A stretch of DNA of 64,000 nucleotides, taken from the NCBI RefSeq assembly GCF_003334355.1, contig NZ_QOWP01000008.1; one strand, written 5' to 3'. The position numbers were made by a program, and so were the translations under genes. Source of the stretch: Escherichia coli (lineage in GTDB: Bacteria; Pseudomonadota; Gammaproteobacteria; Enterobacterales; Enterobacteriaceae). A model generated the notes under the pieces. That model had not been told where the DNA came from. It worked only from the letters and a program-made list of their open reading frames with translations, and made no database searches. Every line of letters starts with the position of its first letter. The stretch's first letter is position 1. Below, in pieces: positions 9,600-60,871 of the stretch.

Positions 9600-9695
9600 G
9601 TAGCCGATGAGGACGCGCCTGATGGGTGTTCTGGCTACCTGACCTGTCCATTGTGGAAGGTCTTACATTCTCGCTGATTTCAGGAGCTATTGATT
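9600..9695 (+). promoter_or_regulatory. ibpA 5' UTR (RNA-thermometer region masking the SD AGGAG at ~9682-9686)
   Basis: About 95-nt leader between the sigma32 promoter and the ibpA ATG; established ROSE-like thermosensor in ibpA. Confidence 0.45.
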
Positions 9696-10109
9696 ATGCG
9701 TAACTTTGATTTATCCCCGCTTTACCGTTCTGCTATTGGATTTGACCGTTTGTTTAACCACTTAGAAAACAACCAGAGCCAGAGTAATGGCGGCTACCCT
9801 CCGTATAACGTTGAACTGGTAGACGAAAACCATTACCGCATTGCTATCGCTGTGGCTGGTTTTGCTGAGAGCGAACTGGAAATTACCGCCCAGGATAATC
9901 TGCTGGTGGTGAAAGGTGCTCACGCCGACGAACAAAAAGAGCGCACCTATCTGTACCAGGGCATCGCTGAACGCAACTTTGAACGCAAATTCCAGTTAGC
10001 TGAGAACATTCATGTTCGTGGCGCTAACCTGGTAAATGGTTTGCTGTATATCGATCTCGAACGCGTGATTCCGGAAGCGAAAAAACCGCGCCGTATCGAA
10101 ATCAACTAA
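9696..10109 (+). CDS. ibpA: Small heat-shock protein IbpA (alpha-crystallin family)
   Basis: 137-aa product [20 protein letters not shown]...; ORF track starts 6 nt upstream at a TTG. Confidence 0.95.
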
Positions 10110-21939: not shown

Positions 21940-22433
21940 CAGGAAGTCAGGTCATTGATGCTGAAGAGGACAGGCATAAACTGGTTGTAGAGTACAAGGA
22001 TGCTCTGCAACCTGCCGATTTTTATCACAATTTCAAACAGCGGGGCATCCGCTCCGTACAGCTCATTCCCTATCTTGAATTTGATGACCGGGGCGATCTG
22101 ACGGCCGCTTCGGTGACAGCAGAGCTGTGGGGGAAATTTTTAATTGCCCTGTTCGAGTGTTGGGTGCGGGCAGATATCAGTCGTATCTCGATTGAGCTTT
22201 TTGACGCCACCTTACAAAAATGGTGTGGCAGCGAAAACCCGCAACCGCGCTGTGACTGCCAGGCGTGCGACTGGCATCGCCTGTGCCCGCACGCTCGGCA
22301 GGAGACGCCAGACAGCGTGCTTTGTGCGGGCTATCAGGCGTTTTATTCTTACTCCGCACCGCATATGCGGGTGATGCGTGATCTGATAAAGCAGCATCGT
22401 TCTCCCATGGAGCTGATGACGATGCTGCGGTGA
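21936..22433 (+). CDS. yidF: YidF, Cys-rich protein resembling the C-terminal (SPASM-like) part of anaerobic sulfatase-maturating enzymes
   Basis: 165-aa ORF with CDCQACDWHRLCPHARQ and LCAGYQAF cysteine motifs; no radical-SAM CxxxCxxC N-terminal domain. Confidence 0.75.
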   Translation: MTGSQVIDAEEDRHKLVVEYKDALQPADFYHNFKQRGIRSVQLIPYLEFDDRGDLTAASVTAELWGKFLIALFECWVRADISRISIELFDATLQKWCGSENPQPRCDCQACDWHRLCPHARQETPDSVLCAGYQAFYSYSAPHMRVMRDLIKQHRSPMELMTMLR

Positions 22434-22440
22434 CGTGCGC

Positions 22441-23625
22441 TTAAACGGGCTGCCCCTGATGCGACATCCGCGTCGCCAGCGGCAGCCAGCACAGCACGAT
22501 CAACAATCCCATTAAGGTCATCAACAACCCCAGGCTGCCCTGACCGGTTTGCGGCAACATCGCAGAGAGCGACGCCAGCACGCCGGAACCAATGTTTTGC
22601 AGACCGCCGACCAGCGCGCCAGCCGTGCCCGCCAGGAAGGGGAACGGCTCCATCGCGCCGCTGGTCGCCAGCGGAAACAGCATCCCGGCACCGAAAAAGA
22701 ACAGCGCGGCGGGAACGAGCAGCGTCCAGACATTCATCACGCCAAACCAGTCGGGGATCCACATCAGCAAGCCAGCCAGCAGGCAGCAGATAACCGACTG
22801 CCACATTAACGTGGAGAAGCGTTTATTGGGACGTCCGGCAAACCATGCGCCAAAAAACGCTGCCGGAATCGGCAGAATAAACAAAATACTGACCGTCATA
22901 CTGCTCAGCCCTAACACCGCGCCCATCAGCACGCCGGAGCAGGCTTCAAAGGCGGCAATCCCGGCCAGACCGCCAATCAGCATCAGCAAATAACAGTTAA
23001 AACCGCTGTTACCGAAAAGCGTTTTATAACTGGTAAGCAGGCGCGTGCGCGGTGCATCGACCGGACGCGTTTCCGGCATCCAGCGGGCCATACTGAAGGT
23101 CACACCAGCACAAAGAACCAACAAAAAGAGATAACAGGCGCGCCAGTTCCACATCGTATCCAGCAGACCGCCGATTAGCGGTGCGAGCAACGGACTGACG
23201 AGAATCCCCATGTTTAACAGGCTGTTAGCATGGCGCAACTGTGTCCGTTCATATAAATCTCGCGGCAAAGTACGCGCCATTACGCCGCCAACGCCGGTGC
23301 CCATCCCCTGCATCGCGCTGGCGGCAATCAACACCGTCAAACTGGAGGTCGTGACCGCGACCAGCGTTGCCAGCATAAAAATGGACATTCCGACGAGGAT
23401 CACCGGTCGGCGGCCCACGCGGTCGGAAATCGGGCCATAAAACAGCTGTGAGACACCGTAAGTCAGCAGATAAGCGCCCATTACGCTCTGCACCGCCCCT
23501 TCACGGACGTTGAGATCGCGCGCCATATCGGCAATAGCTGGAATATAAATGGTTTGCGCCATCTGACCGACGGCCACGAGTAATACCAACATCAATAACA
23601 AATTGACGTTTCTTTGCCTTTTCAT
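22441..23625 (-). CDS. emrD: Multidrug efflux MFS transporter EmrD
   Basis: ORF 22441..23631; start at MKRQRNVNLLLMLVLL gives 394 aa. Confidence 0.9.
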   Translation of the reverse strand: MKRQRNVNLLLMLVLLVAVGQMAQTIYIPAIADMARDLNVREGAVQSVMGAYLLTYGVSQLFYGPISDRVGRRPVILVGMSIFMLATLVAVTTSSLTVLIAASAMQGMGTGVGGVMARTLPRDLYERTQLRHANSLLNMGILVSPLLAPLIGGLLDTMWNWRACYLFLLVLCAGVTFSMARWMPETRPVDAPRTRLLTSYKTLFGNSGFNCYLLMLIGGLAGIAAFEACSGVLMGAVLGLSSMTVSILFILPIPAAFFGAWFAGRPNKRFSTLMWQSVICCLLAGLLMWIPDWFGVMNVWTLLVPAALFFFGAGMLFPLATSGAMEPFPFLAGTAGALVGGLQNIGSGVLASLSAMLPQTGQGSLGLLMTLMGLLIVLCWLPLATRMSHQGQPV

Positions 23626-23799
23626 TATCACGGATGCTTTTATAAAAATAATTAGAATAAGTCACTACGCATTCCCATAAATGCGGGAGAGGAATCTATC
23701 ACATTGATGAATGTTAGCCAGATATACGCCAGGAATGGGGAATTGTTTAGCGGCAGAATATGTAAACAAAAGCGGCAATAAATGTTGCCGGGAGAGATG

Positions 23800-23837
23800 G
23801 TAGGGCGGATAAGATGCGTCAGCATCGCATCCGACAC
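23800..23837. repeat. REP (repetitive extragenic palindromic) element
   Basis: gtagggcggataagatgcgtcagcatcgcatccgacac matches the REP architecture GTAGG-CGGATAAG...GCATCCG. Confidence 0.6.
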
Positions 23838-23856
23838 CAACCCGCACGCTAAATAT

Positions 23857-23885
23857 AAAAGGGGAGCGGTTTCCCGCTCCCCTTT
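23857..23885 (-). terminator. tisAB Rho-independent terminator (palindromic, T-runs on both strands)
   Basis: aaaa-ggggagcgg-ttt-cccgctcccc-ttt just downstream of the tisB stop. Confidence 0.7.
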
Positions 23886-23904
23886 GGTGCGACTTGAATC
23901 TGAA

Positions 23905-23994
23905 TTACTTCAGGTATTTCAGAACAGCATCAAGCAGTTGCAGTGCTGCAACAATGAGTTTGAGGATAAGAATGGCGATATCCACCAGGCTCAT
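23905..23994 (-). CDS. tisB: Type I toxin TisB (29 aa, SOS-induced membrane peptide)
   Basis: Hand translation of the minus strand gives MSLVDIAILILKLIVAALQLLDAVLKYLK-stop; too short for the ORF track; LexA box about 240 bp upstream. Confidence 0.85.
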   Translation of the reverse strand: MSLVDIAILILKLIVAALQLLDAVLKYLK

Positions 23995-24230
23995 ACGCGT
24001 CTCCTGTGGTTCAGGAGCACTGCCAGCTGACGTACCTTTCCGCTGCCTGTTGCCAGCTGTTGTGCACGCGGTATCTCAAGGAGAAACGTTGTGCTTGTTG
24101 ACATAACACAGTGTGCTCACGCGGGGTTAAGGCGCTGACGGCACCACCCGTTTCAGCCAGGACTTAGTGCGCCGGGTAACGATGCGGCCCCCGCATAACA
24201 CATTGCGTACAGTGATATTATAGAAGTTTA

Positions 24231-24246
24231 CTGTATAAATAAACAG
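24231..24246. promoter_or_regulatory. LexA box (SOS operator) of the tisAB/istR-2 divergent promoter region
   Basis: CTGTATAAATAAACAG fits CTG-N10-CAG. Confidence 0.8.
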
Positions 24247-24355
24247 TAATATTTGGACAAAACGCAAACTGTGATCGATACTCAACTATGCACTAAATAC
24301 GTCAAAATTCGTGCCGAAATTGCGCGTTCTGCGCGGAACACGTATACTTTCAGTG

Positions 24356-24433
24356 TTGACATAATACAGTGTGCTTTGCGGTTACCAGCCGCAGGCGACT
24401 GACGAAACCTCGCTCCGGCGGGGTTTTTTGTTA
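24356..24433 (+). ncRNA. istR: IstR-1 antisense sRNA (approximate boundaries); longer IstR-2 would start upstream
   Basis: -10 TATACT at ~24343-24348; body contains gttgacataatacagtgtgct (24355-24375), matching a segment at 24097-24117 inside the tisAB 5' region; ends at a G/C-rich segment plus T6 (~24405-24430). Confidence 0.6.
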
Positions 24434-24558
24434 TCTGCAATTCAGTACAAAACGTGATCAACCCCTCAATTTTCCCTTGCTGAAAAATTTTCCATTGTCT
24501 CCCCTGTAAAGCTGTGCTTGTATAAATATTGTTAAACACAAAACCAACAAGGTCCCCA

Positions 24559-24657
24559 ATGACTACTTCCATGTTCAACGCAAAACTACTACCAACTGCG
24601 CCATCCGCCGCAGTGGTCGTCGTGCGTGTGGTGGTGGTCGTCGGCAATGCGCCGTAG
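24559..24657 (+). CDS. ivbL: ilvB operon leader peptide (Val/Leu-rich, 32 aa)
   Basis: Hand translation MTTSMFNAKLLPTAPSAAVVVVRVVVVVGNAP-stop, followed by the attenuator hairpin. Confidence 0.85.
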   Translation: MTTSMFNAKLLPTAPSAAVVVVRVVVVVGNAP

Positions 24658-24684
24658 GGACTGGAACAACACACGATTCCAAAA

Positions 24685-24716
24685 CCCCGCCGGCGCAAAC
24701 CGGGCGGGGTTTTTCG
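24685..24716 (+). terminator. ilvBN transcription attenuator
   Basis: ccccgccggcgcaaaccgggcgggg hairpin followed by TTTTT between ivbL and ilvB. Confidence 0.8.
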
Positions 24717-24762
24717 TTTAAGCACCTCCCGGAAAGTCGGCCCAGAAGAAAAGGACTGGAGC

Positions 24763-26451
24763 ATGGCAAGTTCGGGCACAACATCGACGCGTAAGCGCTT
24801 TACCGGCGCAGAATTTATCGTTCATTTCCTGGAACAGCAGGGCATTAAGATTGTGACGGGCATTCCGGGCGGTTCTATCCTGCCTGTTTACGATGCCTTA
24901 AGCCAAAGTACGCAAATCCGCCATATTCTGGCTCGCCATGAACAGGGCGCGGGATTTATCGCTCAGGGAATGGCGCGCACCGACGGTAAACCGGCGGTCT
25001 GTATGGCCTGTAGCGGACCGGGTGCGACTAACCTGGTGACCGCCATTGCCGATGCGCGGCTGGACTCCATCCCGCTGATTTGCATCACTGGTCAGGTTCC
25101 CGCCTCGATGATCGGCACCGACGCCTTCCAGGAAGTCGACACCTACGGCATCTCTATCCCCATCACCAAACACAACTATCTGGTCAGACATATCGAAGAA
25201 CTCCCGCAGGTCATGAGCGATGCCTTCCGCATTGCGCAATCAGGCCGCCCAGGCCCGGTGTGGATAGACATTCCTAAGGATGTGCAAACGGCGGTTTTTG
25301 AGATTGAAGCTCAGCCCGCGGTGGCAGAAAAAGCCGCTGCACCCGCCTTTAGCGAAGAAAGCATTCGTGACGCAGCTACAATGATTAACGCTGCCAAACG
25401 CCCGGTGCTTTATCTGGGTGGTGGTGTGATCAATGCGCCTGCGCGGGTGCGTGAACTGGCGGAGAAAGCGCAACTGCCTACCACCATGACTTTAATGGCG
25501 CTGGGCATGCTGCCAAAAGCGCATCCGTTGTCGCTGGGTATGCTGGGGATGCACGGCGTGCGCAGCACTAACTATATCTTGCAGGAGGCGGATTTACTGA
25601 TTGTGCTCGGTGCGCGTTTTGATGACCGGGCGATTGGCAAAACCGAGCAGTTCTGTCCGAATGCCAAAATCATTCATGTCGATATCGACCGTGCAGAGCT
25701 GGGTAAAATCAAGCAGCCGCATGTGGCGATTCAGGCGGATGTTGATGACGTGCTGGCGCAGTTGATCCCGCTGGTGGAAGCGCAACCGCGTGCAGAGTGG
25801 CACCAGTTGGTAGCGGATTTGCAGCGTGAGTTTCCGTGTCCAATCCCGAAAGCGTGCGATCCATTAAGCCATTACGGCCTGATCAACGCCGTTGCCGCCT
25901 GTGTCGATGACAATGCGATTATCACCACCGATGTGGGGCAGCATCAGATGTGGACCGCGCAAGCTTATCCGCTCAATCGCCCACGCCAGTGGCTGACCTC
26001 CGGTGGGCTGGGCACGATGGGTTTTGGCCTGCCTGCGGCGATTGGCGCGGCGCTGGCGAACCCGGATCGCAAAGTGTTGTGTTTCTCCGGCGACGGCAGC
26101 CTGATGATGAATATTCAGGAGATGGCGACCGCCAGTGAAAATCAGCTGGATGTCAAAATCATTCTGATGAACAACGAAGCGCTGGGGCTGGTGCATCAGC
26201 AACAGAGTCTGTTCTACGAGCAAGGCGTTTTTGCCGCCACCTATCCGGGCAAAATCAACTTTATGCAGATTGCCGCCGGATTCGGCCTCGAAACCTGTGA
26301 TTTGAATAACGAAGCCGATCCGCAGGCTGCATTGCAGGAAATCATCAATCGCCCTGGCCCGGCGCTGATCCATGTGCGCATTGATGCCGAAGAAAAAGTT
26401 TACCCGATGGTGCCGCTAGGTGCGGCGAATACTGAAATGGTGGGGGAATAA
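24763..26451 (+). CDS. ilvB: Acetolactate synthase I, large subunit (TPP-dependent)
   Basis: 562-aa ORF; TPP-binding motif GDGSLMMNIQE. Confidence 0.95.
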   Translation: MASSGTTSTRKRFTGAEFIVHFLEQQGIKIVTGIPGGSILPVYDALSQSTQIRHILARHEQGAGFIAQGMARTDGKPAVCMACSGPGATNLVTAIADARLDSIPLICITGQVPASMIGTDAFQEVDTYGISIPITKHNYLVRHIEELPQVMSDAFRIAQSGRPGPVWIDIPKDVQTAVFEIEAQPAVAEKAAAPAFSEESIRDAATMINAAKRPVLYLGGGVINAPARVRELAEKAQLPTTMTLMALGMLPKAHPLSLGMLGMHGVRSTNYILQEADLLIVLGARFDDRAIGKTEQFCPNAKIIHVDIDRAELGKIKQPHVAIQADVDDVLAQLIPLVEAQPRAEWHQLVADLQREFPCPIPKACDPLSHYGLINAVAACVDDNAIITTDVGQHQMWTAQAYPLNRPRQWLTSGGLGTMGFGLPAAIGAALANPDRKVLCFSGDGSLMMNIQEMATASENQLDVKIILMNNEALGLVHQQQSLFYEQGVFAATYPGKINFMQIAAGFGLETCDLNNEADPQAALQEIINRPGPALIHVRIDAEEKVYPMVPLGAANTEMVGE

Positions 26452-41227: not shown

Positions 41228-41322
41228 TGGCGGAAGATCACAGGAGTCGAACCTGCCCGGGACCGCTGGCGGCCCCAACTGGATTTGAAGTCCAGCCGCC
41301 TCACCGGAGACGACGATCTTCC
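41228..41322 (-). tRNA. selC: tRNA-Sec (selenocysteine tRNA)
   Basis: 95-nt sequence whose reverse complement reads GGAAGATCGTCGTCTCCGGTGAGGCGGCTGGACTTCAAATCCAGTTGGGGCCGCCAGCGGTCCCGGGCAGGTTCGACTCCTGTGATCTTCCGCCA, with anticodon TCA and encoded CCA end. Confidence 0.95.
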
Positions 41323-58961: not shown

Positions 58962-59786
58962 CTATTTCTTCTCTGTAATTTTTACACTGTTTTCCAACTG
59001 CTTGATGCTGACCTGCGGGGTCGGCAACTCCTCAGGCATGGTTCCGCCAAGTTCCTGAATGGTTTGCCTCACCTTGCGACCCACGTCAAAGTGTGTGGTG
59101 TTTGCTTGCTGTTTTGAATTCACGCCATCCCGCTTGAGTTTTTCTTCTGTTTGGGTAGCTCGAAAGAGATTAGCCGCCAGTTCTGTTGAACCCATATGAT
59201 CCAGGATCTTCTGACTCTTTTTCAGCCCCTTCCGCTGATGGATGGCTTTCTGATCTAATCCACCATACAGCCCCCGGTAACCATGATTCTGAAATATGGC
59301 GAAATCGATAGCTGTCGCTACCCCAGCTTGCTGCGCTGCCTCAACTAATTGTTTGTTATGTTCTTTCAATTCATTTCTCAGAAAAAGACGCTTTTCGTCT
59401 TCACGAAGTTGCCTGAAAGCTTCATCGTCAGCCAGCTCCTGCCGTCGGGTCTGGATAGCAAAATAAGTTTGCCCTGCCGCAATAACCGGTTTCGCAGGGT
59501 CGCCGTTTTGTACTACCAGGTAACAGGCATAGCGGGAGAGATGAACATCTTCAAGTTCTCGTTGAGCCCCTGAACCTAATACAACCATTTTGGTGGTTTC
59601 AACGAAATGGTCAGATGCAGCTTGATTGCTGGCTTCGCACGCTTGAGTCGCGCGGGCAAGTACCTTTTGAAAATTGCGCCAGTCCCGATAATCCAGTAAC
59701 GGTGCCAATTCTCTCGCTGACCAAAATTCTTGCCCTTCAGTGCCATAATGCCGTATTTCTTCAAAAGGTTGATGATGTTCGTTCAT
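58962..59786 (-). CDS. dinD: DNA-damage-inducible protein DinD
   Basis: ORF 58962..59798; start at MNEHHQPFEE gives 274 aa; LexA box 46 bp upstream. Confidence 0.85.
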   Translation of the reverse strand: MNEHHQPFEEIRHYGTEGQEFWSARELAPLLDYRDWRNFQKVLARATQACEASNQAASDHFVETTKMVVLGSGAQRELEDVHLSRYACYLVVQNGDPAKPVIAAGQTYFAIQTRRQELADDEAFRQLREDEKRLFLRNELKEHNKQLVEAAQQAGVATAIDFAIFQNHGYRGLYGGLDQKAIHQRKGLKKSQKILDHMGSTELAANLFRATQTEEKLKRDGVNSKQQANTTHFDVGRKVRQTIQELGGTMPEELPTPQVSIKQLENSVKITEKK

Positions 59787-59831
59787 TGCCCACTCCATGT
59801 GATATCGATTGCAAAGAAAGTAAATCTGTAA

Positions 59832-59847
59832 CTGTATTTATATACAG
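59832..59847. promoter_or_regulatory. LexA box of the dinD promoter
   Basis: CTGTATTTATATACAG fits CTG-N10-CAG. Confidence 0.8.
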
Positions 59848-60007: not shown

Positions 60008-60871
60008 TTATTCAATGTTCTGAATCTGTTCGCGCATCTGCTCAATCAACACTTTCAGCTCAATCGCGGAGTTTGTCACTTCGGCATTGATAGACTTCGA
60101 AGCAAGAGTGTTCGACTCGCGGTTGAACTCCTGCATCATAAAGTCCAGACGACGACCAACGGCTTCTTTTTTCTTCAGAATGTTGTACGTCTCATTAACA
60201 TGCGCTTCGAGGCGGTCCAGTTCTTCGGCAACGTCAATTCGTTGTGCCAGCAGAACCAACTCCTGCTCCAGACGGTTGTTTTCCAACTGCACCTGAGCAT
60301 CTTCCAGCTTCGCGACCAAGCGTTCACGCTGCCATTGCAGGATTTCCGGCATATGGGAGCGGACTTTGACCACTTCGGCGGTGACGCCTTCCAGACGCTG
60401 CTCAATCAACGCTTTCAGCGCCTGACCTTCGGTTTCGCGAGCGATGATAAAGTCATCCAGGGTGCCATCCAACGCCGCGAGAATTTCAGCGGCAATCGCG
60501 TCGAGATCCTGCTCCTGGGCTGCCATCACGCCCGGCCAGCGTAGAATATCAACCGGGTTGATTTCCCCTTCGTCACTCTGCATTTTTACCCAGTTCGCGG
60601 CAGTTACCAGCTGTTTAGCCAGTTTTTCATTGAGGATCAGCTCACCTTGTGCGCTAACATCTGGCTCATAGCGCAGGGTACATTCCACTTTACCGCGCGT
60701 CAGGCGAGAACGAATACGCTCACGAACGACAGGTTCAAGGCTACGGAACTGCTCCGGCAGACGAAAGTAAGTTTCCAGATAACGCTGGTTTACCGAGCGC
60801 ATTTCCCAGGTTGCGCTCCCCCATTCACCCTTGATTTCACGCCGGGCGTAGGCGGTCATACTGCGGATCAT
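60008..60871 (-). CDS. yicC: YicC-family stress-induced protein
   Basis: 287-aa ORF; divergent from rph. Confidence 0.9.
   Translation of the reverse strand: MIRSMTAYARREIKGEWGSATWEMRSVNQRYLETYFRLPEQFRSLEPVVRERIRSRLTRGKVECTLRYEPDVSAQGELILNEKLAKQLVTAANWVKMQSDEGEINPVDILRWPGVMAAQEQDLDAIAAEILAALDGTLDDFIIARETEGQALKALIEQRLEGVTAEVVKVRSHMPEILQWQRERLVAKLEDAQVQLENNRLEQELVLLAQRIDVAEELDRLEAHVNETYNILKKKEAVGRRLDFMMQEFNRESNTLASKSINAEVTNSAIELKVLIEQMREQIQNIE

Follow-up and report, generated by a model that had tools for sequence, protein, structure and literature searches.

[quoted passage not shown] Expression of tisB is repressed by LexA and induced during the SOS response, and the antitoxin RNA IstR-1 is made constitutively (PMC5668327, PMC2826370). 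The primary (+1) tisAB mRNA, which is inert, becomes the +42 form when 41 nt are removed. In this form a single-stranded region some 100 nt upstream of the ribosome-binding site (RBS) acts as a standby site for the ribosome, dependent on S1; IstR-1 pairs at this standby site, blocks binding of the 30S subunit and leads to an inert +106 form (PMC6690012). The complementarity between IstR-1 and the tisB 5′ UTR covers 21 nt, and RNase III cuts the resulting duplex (PMC4147584). TisB itself causes depolarisation of the inner membrane and promotes persisters that tolerate ciprofloxacin (PMC2826370).

The stretch of E. coli DNA analysed here (the window, 64,000 nucleotides) contains at positions 23857-24433 what is almost certainly this known SOS-induced type I toxin-antitoxin locus, chromosomal, intact and functional. 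The defining features of tisB/istR-1 that can be tested in a sequence are present or, for the sequestered tisB RBS, predicted. The region is flanked by emrD and by ivbL-ilvB, genes that are annotated in RefSeq, and the alignment of window positions 22300-25547 with the K-12 MG1655 chromosome runs without gaps, which gives the orthologous context emrD ... ivbL-ilvB. Within the emrD-ivbL interval a single base differs from K-12 MG1655, at position 23990 (C here, T in K-12). A 921-nt query over the region was 100% identical to many complete E. coli chromosomes, including those of E. coli C and ATCC 8739, and the identical RefSeq records annotate tisB, ysdE and ivbL beneath the match. The preliminary description of this DNA had named the locus tisB/istR-1 and proposed a comparison with the published tisAB/istR locus. 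That comparison, with its single SNP between emrD and ivbL, upholds the name, as do the TisB equivalog models, the Rfam istR model and the conserved pairing described below. The system lies in its usual chromosomal place and is an ordinary find, already fully described. The features of the locus and its neighbours are listed in Table 1.

Table 1. Mapped and predicted features of the tisB/istR-1 locus and adjacent genes, in window coordinates.
Feature	Position	Strand	Evidence
emrD	22441-23625	minus	K-12 RefSeq feature mapped onto the window
ysdE, 24-aa small protein gene	23707-23781	plus	K-12 RefSeq mapping; annotated in RefSeq
tisAB intrinsic terminator hairpin, 12-bp perfect stem, 4-nt loop	23858-23885	minus	Repeat and terminator scans
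tisB CDS, 29-aa hydrophobic toxin MSLVDIAILILKLIVAALQLLDAVLKYLK, N2S relative to K-12	23905-23994	minus	ORF listing, HMMs, K-12 mapping
tisA, 37-codon upstream frame overlapping the tisB ATG, part of the leader	23991-24104	minus	ORF listing
Hairpin sequestering the tisB Shine-Dalgarno sequence; AGGAGA (24000-24005) pairs with CUCCUG (24012-24017)	23997-24022	minus	Predicted
IstR-1 target within the tisAB leader (ribosome standby site); the tisB AUG (23994) follows 102-123 nt downstream	24096-24117	minus	Repeat, duplex, comparative; standby role from the literature
5′ part of the tisAB leader, including the 41 nt lost in processing and the nearly invariant block GUCCUGGCUGAAACGGGUGGUGCCGUCAGCGCC	24118-24210	minus	-10 position, alignment
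tisAB -10 hexamer TATAAT	24217-24222	minus	Sequence reading; hexamer given in Table 1 of PMC11264685
LexA box TACTGTATAAATAAACAGTA, flanked by the divergent promoters of tisAB and istR-2	24229-24248		Sequence reading
istR-2 promoter TGGACA, 17 nt, GATACT	24254-24282	plus	Promoter scan; PMC11264685 Table 1
IstR-2, 140 nt, LexA-controlled, contains IstR-1	24290-24429	plus	K-12 RefSeq coordinates mapped
istR-1 promoter TTGCGC (24320-24325), 17 nt, TATACT (24343-24348)	24320-24348	plus	Sequence reading
IstR-1 5′ tail, complementary to the tisAB leader	24354-24375	plus	Repeat search, duplex calculation
IstR-1 antitoxin sRNA, about 73-75 nt: 5′ tail, internal stem-loop, terminator hairpin	24355-24429	plus	Rfam, K-12 mapping, fold
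istR intrinsic terminator, 10-bp stem (hairpin 24404-24427) and T-run	24404-24433	plus	Terminator scan; Rfam match
ivbL	24559-24657	plus	K-12 RefSeq feature mapped onto the window

All ORFs of at least 20 aa were listed, and positions 23500-24800 were read on both strands. The 29-codon minus-strand ORF reported previously is present, with the translation given in Table 1, and matches both curated TisB equivalog models over residues 1-29 of 29: NCBIfam NF011340 with 69.9 bits (cut-off 53) and TIGR04459 with 61.5 bits (cut-off 38). The only weak point of the preliminary description was its framing of the toxin gene as missing. RefSeq records with the identical sequence annotate tisB. At 29 aa the protein falls below ordinary ORF-length cut-offs, such as a 60-aa default, and the apparent absence reflects this threshold effect and not an annotation gap. 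Very short toxin genes escape such thresholds, and regulatory signatures, here a LexA box together with an antisense repeat, can recover them.

The toxin and RNA genes are divergent and do not overlap, with tisB on the minus and istR on the plus strand. Between the tisAB -10 hexamer and the istR-2 -35 hexamer (24254-24259) sits the LexA box, which had been noted as a consensus site about 240 bp upstream of the small ORF. Its CTGT-N8-ACAG core (24231-24246) is indeed found 237 bp upstream of the tisB ATG, and TACTGTATAAATAAACAGTA fits the consensus TACTGTATATATATACAGTA at 18 of 20 positions. The 64-kb window holds two CTGT-N8-ACAG sites, the tisB box and a dinD box. The latter, CTGTATTTATATACAG (59832-59847), lies just upstream of the minus-strand ORF (58962-59798) that corresponds to dinD, a known SOS gene. 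For the tisB LexA box a heterology index of 1.81 has been given (PMC5668327).

The consensus promoter scan flagged neither the tisAB nor the istR-1 promoter. Their hexamers were located by reading the sequence and matching it to Table 1 of PMC11264685, which gives TTGCGC/TATACT for istR-1, GATACT preceded by TGGACA for istR-2, TATAAT for tisAB and AGGAGA as the RBS. The TATACT -10 element already seen upstream of the plus-strand repeat is thus in place, 17 nt after TTGCGC. Both transcription units end in intrinsic terminators. The istR terminator (24412-24432) resembles the ivbL attenuator terminator (24681-24718) over 16 nt that are 94% identical, both as a direct and as an inverted match. 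Other places in E. coli genomes also contain short stretches matching the 3′ end of istR, and these have been treated as common terminator sequence (PMC11264685). Sub-threshold Rfam matches to naRNA4, STnc310 and P6 near the locus were rejected as additional sRNAs; they correspond to a REP-like element and to the ivbL attenuator terminator. The REP-like palindromic element, a partial naRNA4 match, occupies 23804-23836, between ysdE and the tisB terminator. Two further RNA elements lie outside the locus, colinear with K-12: a ROSE_2 RNA thermometer (9630-9702, plus strand, 100 bits), which by its K-12 position belongs to the ibpA 5′ UTR, and tRNA-Sec (selC; 41232-41322, minus strand, 84 bits).

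The Rfam istR family (RF01400) matches positions 24300-24429 of the plus strand over its full length (model 1-130 of 130) with 150.1 bits against a gathering threshold of 45. The IstR-1 gene annotated for K-12 in RefSeq maps to 24357-24429, plus strand (73 nt). The two segments expected to pair had been described as a 21-nt repeat with one mismatch (24097-24117 and 24355-24375). Such a repeat is present, with its single mismatch, but its true length is 22 nt (24096-24117 and 24354-24375, 95% identity). Both copies read on the plus strand; therefore the tail of IstR-1 is complementary to the minus-strand tisAB transcript. The refutation named beforehand, failure of the two segments to form an antisense duplex in their transcribed orientations, did not occur: in the calculation they form an unbroken 22-bp duplex in which the DNA mismatch becomes a G·U wobble at 24365. 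The energy of this duplex was -36.3 kcal/mol, compared to -14.2 ± 2.3 kcal/mol for 1000 shuffled tails, none of which did as well (z = -9.8), and to -13.3 kcal/mol for a control in the wrong orientation. Moreover, once the antisense strand of the RNA itself is set aside, no other site in the whole window suits the tail as well as the tisAB target. These energies were computed from the tail alone; the calculation with full-length IstR and the mRNA ignores intramolecular structure and returns an unrealistically long duplex. Starting from the RefSeq 5′ end (24357), 19 of the 22 repeat bases fall within the annotated IstR-1 and the duplex shortens to 19 bp and -31.1 kcal/mol. The 21 nt of complementarity in the literature would require an IstR-1 5′ end at about 24355.

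It is very unlikely that the antitoxin is the longer, LexA-controlled IstR-2 rather than IstR-1, or that tisA is a translated partner of tisB. IstR-2 does hold the entire IstR-1 sequence, pairing tail included, and deleting the promoter region of istR-2 reduced persister levels (PMC2826370); the tisA frame, for its part, shows more than 99% conservation among E. coli sequences, described as unexplained (PMC11264685). Against this, IstR-2 was reported not to repress tisB translation and tisA not to be translated (PMC2826370), and in the predicted fold of IstR-2 the first part of the tail is paired to upstream sequence. The tisA frame gave no NCBIfam match. Among 15 enterobacterial tisB loci it is intact only in E. 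coli, and 12 of the 14 other loci, from species that keep tisB, the target and istR, contain no ATG-initiated ORF of at least 11 aa in the corresponding stretch. The frame found at this position in Salmonella codes for a different peptide.

The tisA frame arises from 34 nt of leader sequence (about 24062-24095) that follow the target closely on its 3′ side. Among the aligned loci, this segment is restricted to Escherichia, Salmonella and Citrobacter sp. Awk 4. The creation of the frame by this segment, and its absence from 12 of the 14 other loci, argue that tisA is probably not a gene but a by-product of the leader sequence; the idea that it is a genuine coding gene was rejected on this cross-genus absence. 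A second lineage-specific feature is the G·U pair of the duplex (24365 in IstR-1, 24107 in the target): E. coli has U at this position, and all 14 other species sampled have C, giving a C:G pair. That the 34-nt segment and this G·U pair together constitute a lineage-specific tuning element is a speculative and rather unlikely proposal. If it were true, the element would alter the relocation of the standby ribosome to the tisB RBS, or the tightness of repression by IstR-1, and it would explain why tisA is so highly conserved in E. coli despite being untranslated and missing from most genera.

Base 23990 changes Asn2 of TisB to Ser2, a nonsynonymous difference from the K-12 reference, and might on that account be read as the mark of a decayed locus in which this or another change has inactivated the toxin and left a remnant. 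Such decay is highly improbable. Ser2 is also residue 2 of the Citrobacter and Salmonella proteins, and in a 2024 survey of more than 2,000 E. coli genomes it was the consensus variant, found in 85% of TisB sequences; the N2S protein is toxic, at least as much as that of K-12 (PMC11264685). In addition, the promoter, LexA, Shine-Dalgarno, standby-site and terminator sequences are all identical to those of K-12. The reading of N2S as a sign of a decayed or unusual allele was rejected because Ser2 is the state shared across genera and held by the E. coli majority. Asn2 of K-12 is the minority form, and the finding confirms that the window is a stretch of ordinary E. coli chromosome, with TisB in its majority (Ser2) allele.

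The conservation of the locus was assessed in other Enterobacteriaceae. The pattern used to scan one genome per species came from the structured 3′ portion of IstR, so that the pairing test was kept unbiased. The pattern is GC-rich, and most matches were chance occurrences in high-GC genomes; at least 17 Enterobacteriaceae loci were among the matches listed, and 15 of them were scanned with the Rfam library. A full-length istR scored above the Rfam threshold in all 15. The Siccibacter locus stops short of the tisB leader and was left out of the pairing and toxin analyses. A 29-aa TisB ORF occupies the same relative position in each of the 14 loci that can be read through to the toxin. The window and 14 of the 15 fetched loci carry the exact CTGT-N8-ACAG core upstream of istR, at a distance that does not vary; in Lelliottia the motif at this position reads CTGG-N8-ACAG. 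The istR-1 -35 and -10 blocks are conserved in 15/15 istR sequences, the tisAB -10 is kept as TATAAT or TATACT in all 15 loci of the leader alignment, and the tisAB terminator hairpin is conserved in 14 orthologous loci. Besides this -10 element, the leader alignment shows conservation of the LexA box, of the block GUCCUGGCUGAAACGGGUGGUGCCGUCAGCGCC upstream of the target, of the target and of the Shine-Dalgarno sequence.

In 14/14 loci the tail-target duplex occupies the same relative position, with 95.5% of positions paired, a figure biased upward because the target of each species was taken as the best-pairing segment. Two positions of the duplex change on both sides, between GC and AU in six and four distinct sequences at one (6:4) and between AU and GC in nine and two at the other (9:2). 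The covariation score of the duplex exceeded all 500 shuffles and all slid controls. The repeat underlying it is not expected by chance: pairs of 21-mers with at most one mismatch and within 400 nt of each other have an expectation of about 0.00035 in 64 kb, and none occurred in 20 shuffled windows. The idea that an intergenic region contains the repeat and the small ORF by chance, without antisense function, is already refuted: the 29-codon ORF is by itself weak evidence, many spurious ORFs of 20-80 codons overlapping the region, but the repeat expectation, the passing of both the toxin and the RNA family models (TisB HMM and Rfam), and the conserved position with compensatory substitutions across genera all speak against it. 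Elsewhere in the window, the yicC CDS (60008-60871, minus strand) holds another direct repeat of 21-22 nt with one mismatch (60038-60059 and 60398-60419, 360 nt apart), which probably reflects a duplication within the protein. The tisB/istR motif itself occurs a third time as a partial copy, CATAACACATTG (24194-24205), which falls in roughly the first 17 nt of the tisAB mRNA as its 5′ end is placed below.

We infer that tisAB transcription starts at about 24210, 7 nt downstream of the -10 hexamer, because of the position of that hexamer and because +106 then falls inside the duplex. The +1, +42 and +106 forms of the mRNA were folded by partition function. In the minimum free energy fold of the +1 mRNA, the 5′ end pairs across the standby/target region, and this predicted pairing fits the published inert structure of the +1 form. 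The mean unpaired probability of the Shine-Dalgarno/AUG region was about 0.27 in all mRNA forms. The tisB RBS is predicted to be sequestered by an anti-Shine-Dalgarno hairpin, found in the window and in 12 other species, with GGAG paired throughout. This hairpin was checked species by species; the consensus leader fold missed it owing to misalignment by MAFFT, and shows a downstream stem with four compensatory pairs. The predicted unpaired probability of the target rises from 0.39 in the +1 form to 0.47-0.50 after processing, a small difference obtained from folding alone. Since this gain in accessibility in silico is modest, the processing switch rests on published experiments and not on folding; they were performed on the K-12 sequence, which is identical to that of the window (PMC6690012). 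The mapped anatomy fits the published steps, with +106 inside the duplex and the target at its mapped distance from the AUG.

These elements can be assembled into a mechanism. Gene identities, arrangement, complementarity, conservation and covariation come from the present analysis; transcription, processing, standby, RNase III cleavage, toxicity and persistence are taken from the literature on the identical leader and antitoxin. LexA bound to its box would repress the minus-strand tisAB promoter, and upon DNA damage a tisAB mRNA of about 350 nt would be made. This primary mRNA would remain untranslated, with the tisB Shine-Dalgarno sequence held in a hairpin and the 5′ end paired across the upstream single-stranded region. 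Loss of the first 41 nt would expose the target segment as a ribosome standby site, from which 30S subunits, through protein S1, would move some 100 nt downstream to the start of tisB. Constitutive plus-strand transcription from about 24355-24357 would supply IstR-1, whose 5′ tail would pair with the standby site and so block 30S loading. The resulting duplex would be a substrate for RNase III, and its cleavage would leave the inert +106 mRNA. The outcome may favour dormant, antibiotic-tolerant persister cells.

Compared to the reference locus of K-12 MG1655 (b4618 and b4616), the gene order emrD-ysdE-tisB-istR-ivbL-ilvB is the same. Identity extends to the LexA box and all three promoters, to the leader with its standby/target site and tisA, to IstR-1 and IstR-2 and to the terminators; the loci differ by the single base at 23990 and hence by Ser2 here for Asn2 in K-12. 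The loci of Salmonella, Citrobacter, Enterobacter, Kosakonia, Trabulsiella and other Enterobacteriaceae share the 29-aa TisB, the position of the LexA box, the istR-1 promoter blocks, the tail-target duplex, the anti-Shine-Dalgarno hairpin and the terminators; in the more distant genera the IstR-2-specific 5′ part has strongly diverged from that of E. coli. Three other E. coli systems, dinQ/agrB, zorO/orzO and shoB/ohsC, likewise consist of divergent, non-overlapping toxin and sRNA genes. As in the present locus, their sRNA pairs inside a long 5′ UTR and an inert primary mRNA is activated by 5′ processing, and dinQ, as tisB, is under LexA control (PMC4147584, PMC5668327). However, these systems belong to other toxin and RNA families. 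Because it matches the TisB and istR models specifically, the present locus is not a member of any of the three but of tisB/istR-1.
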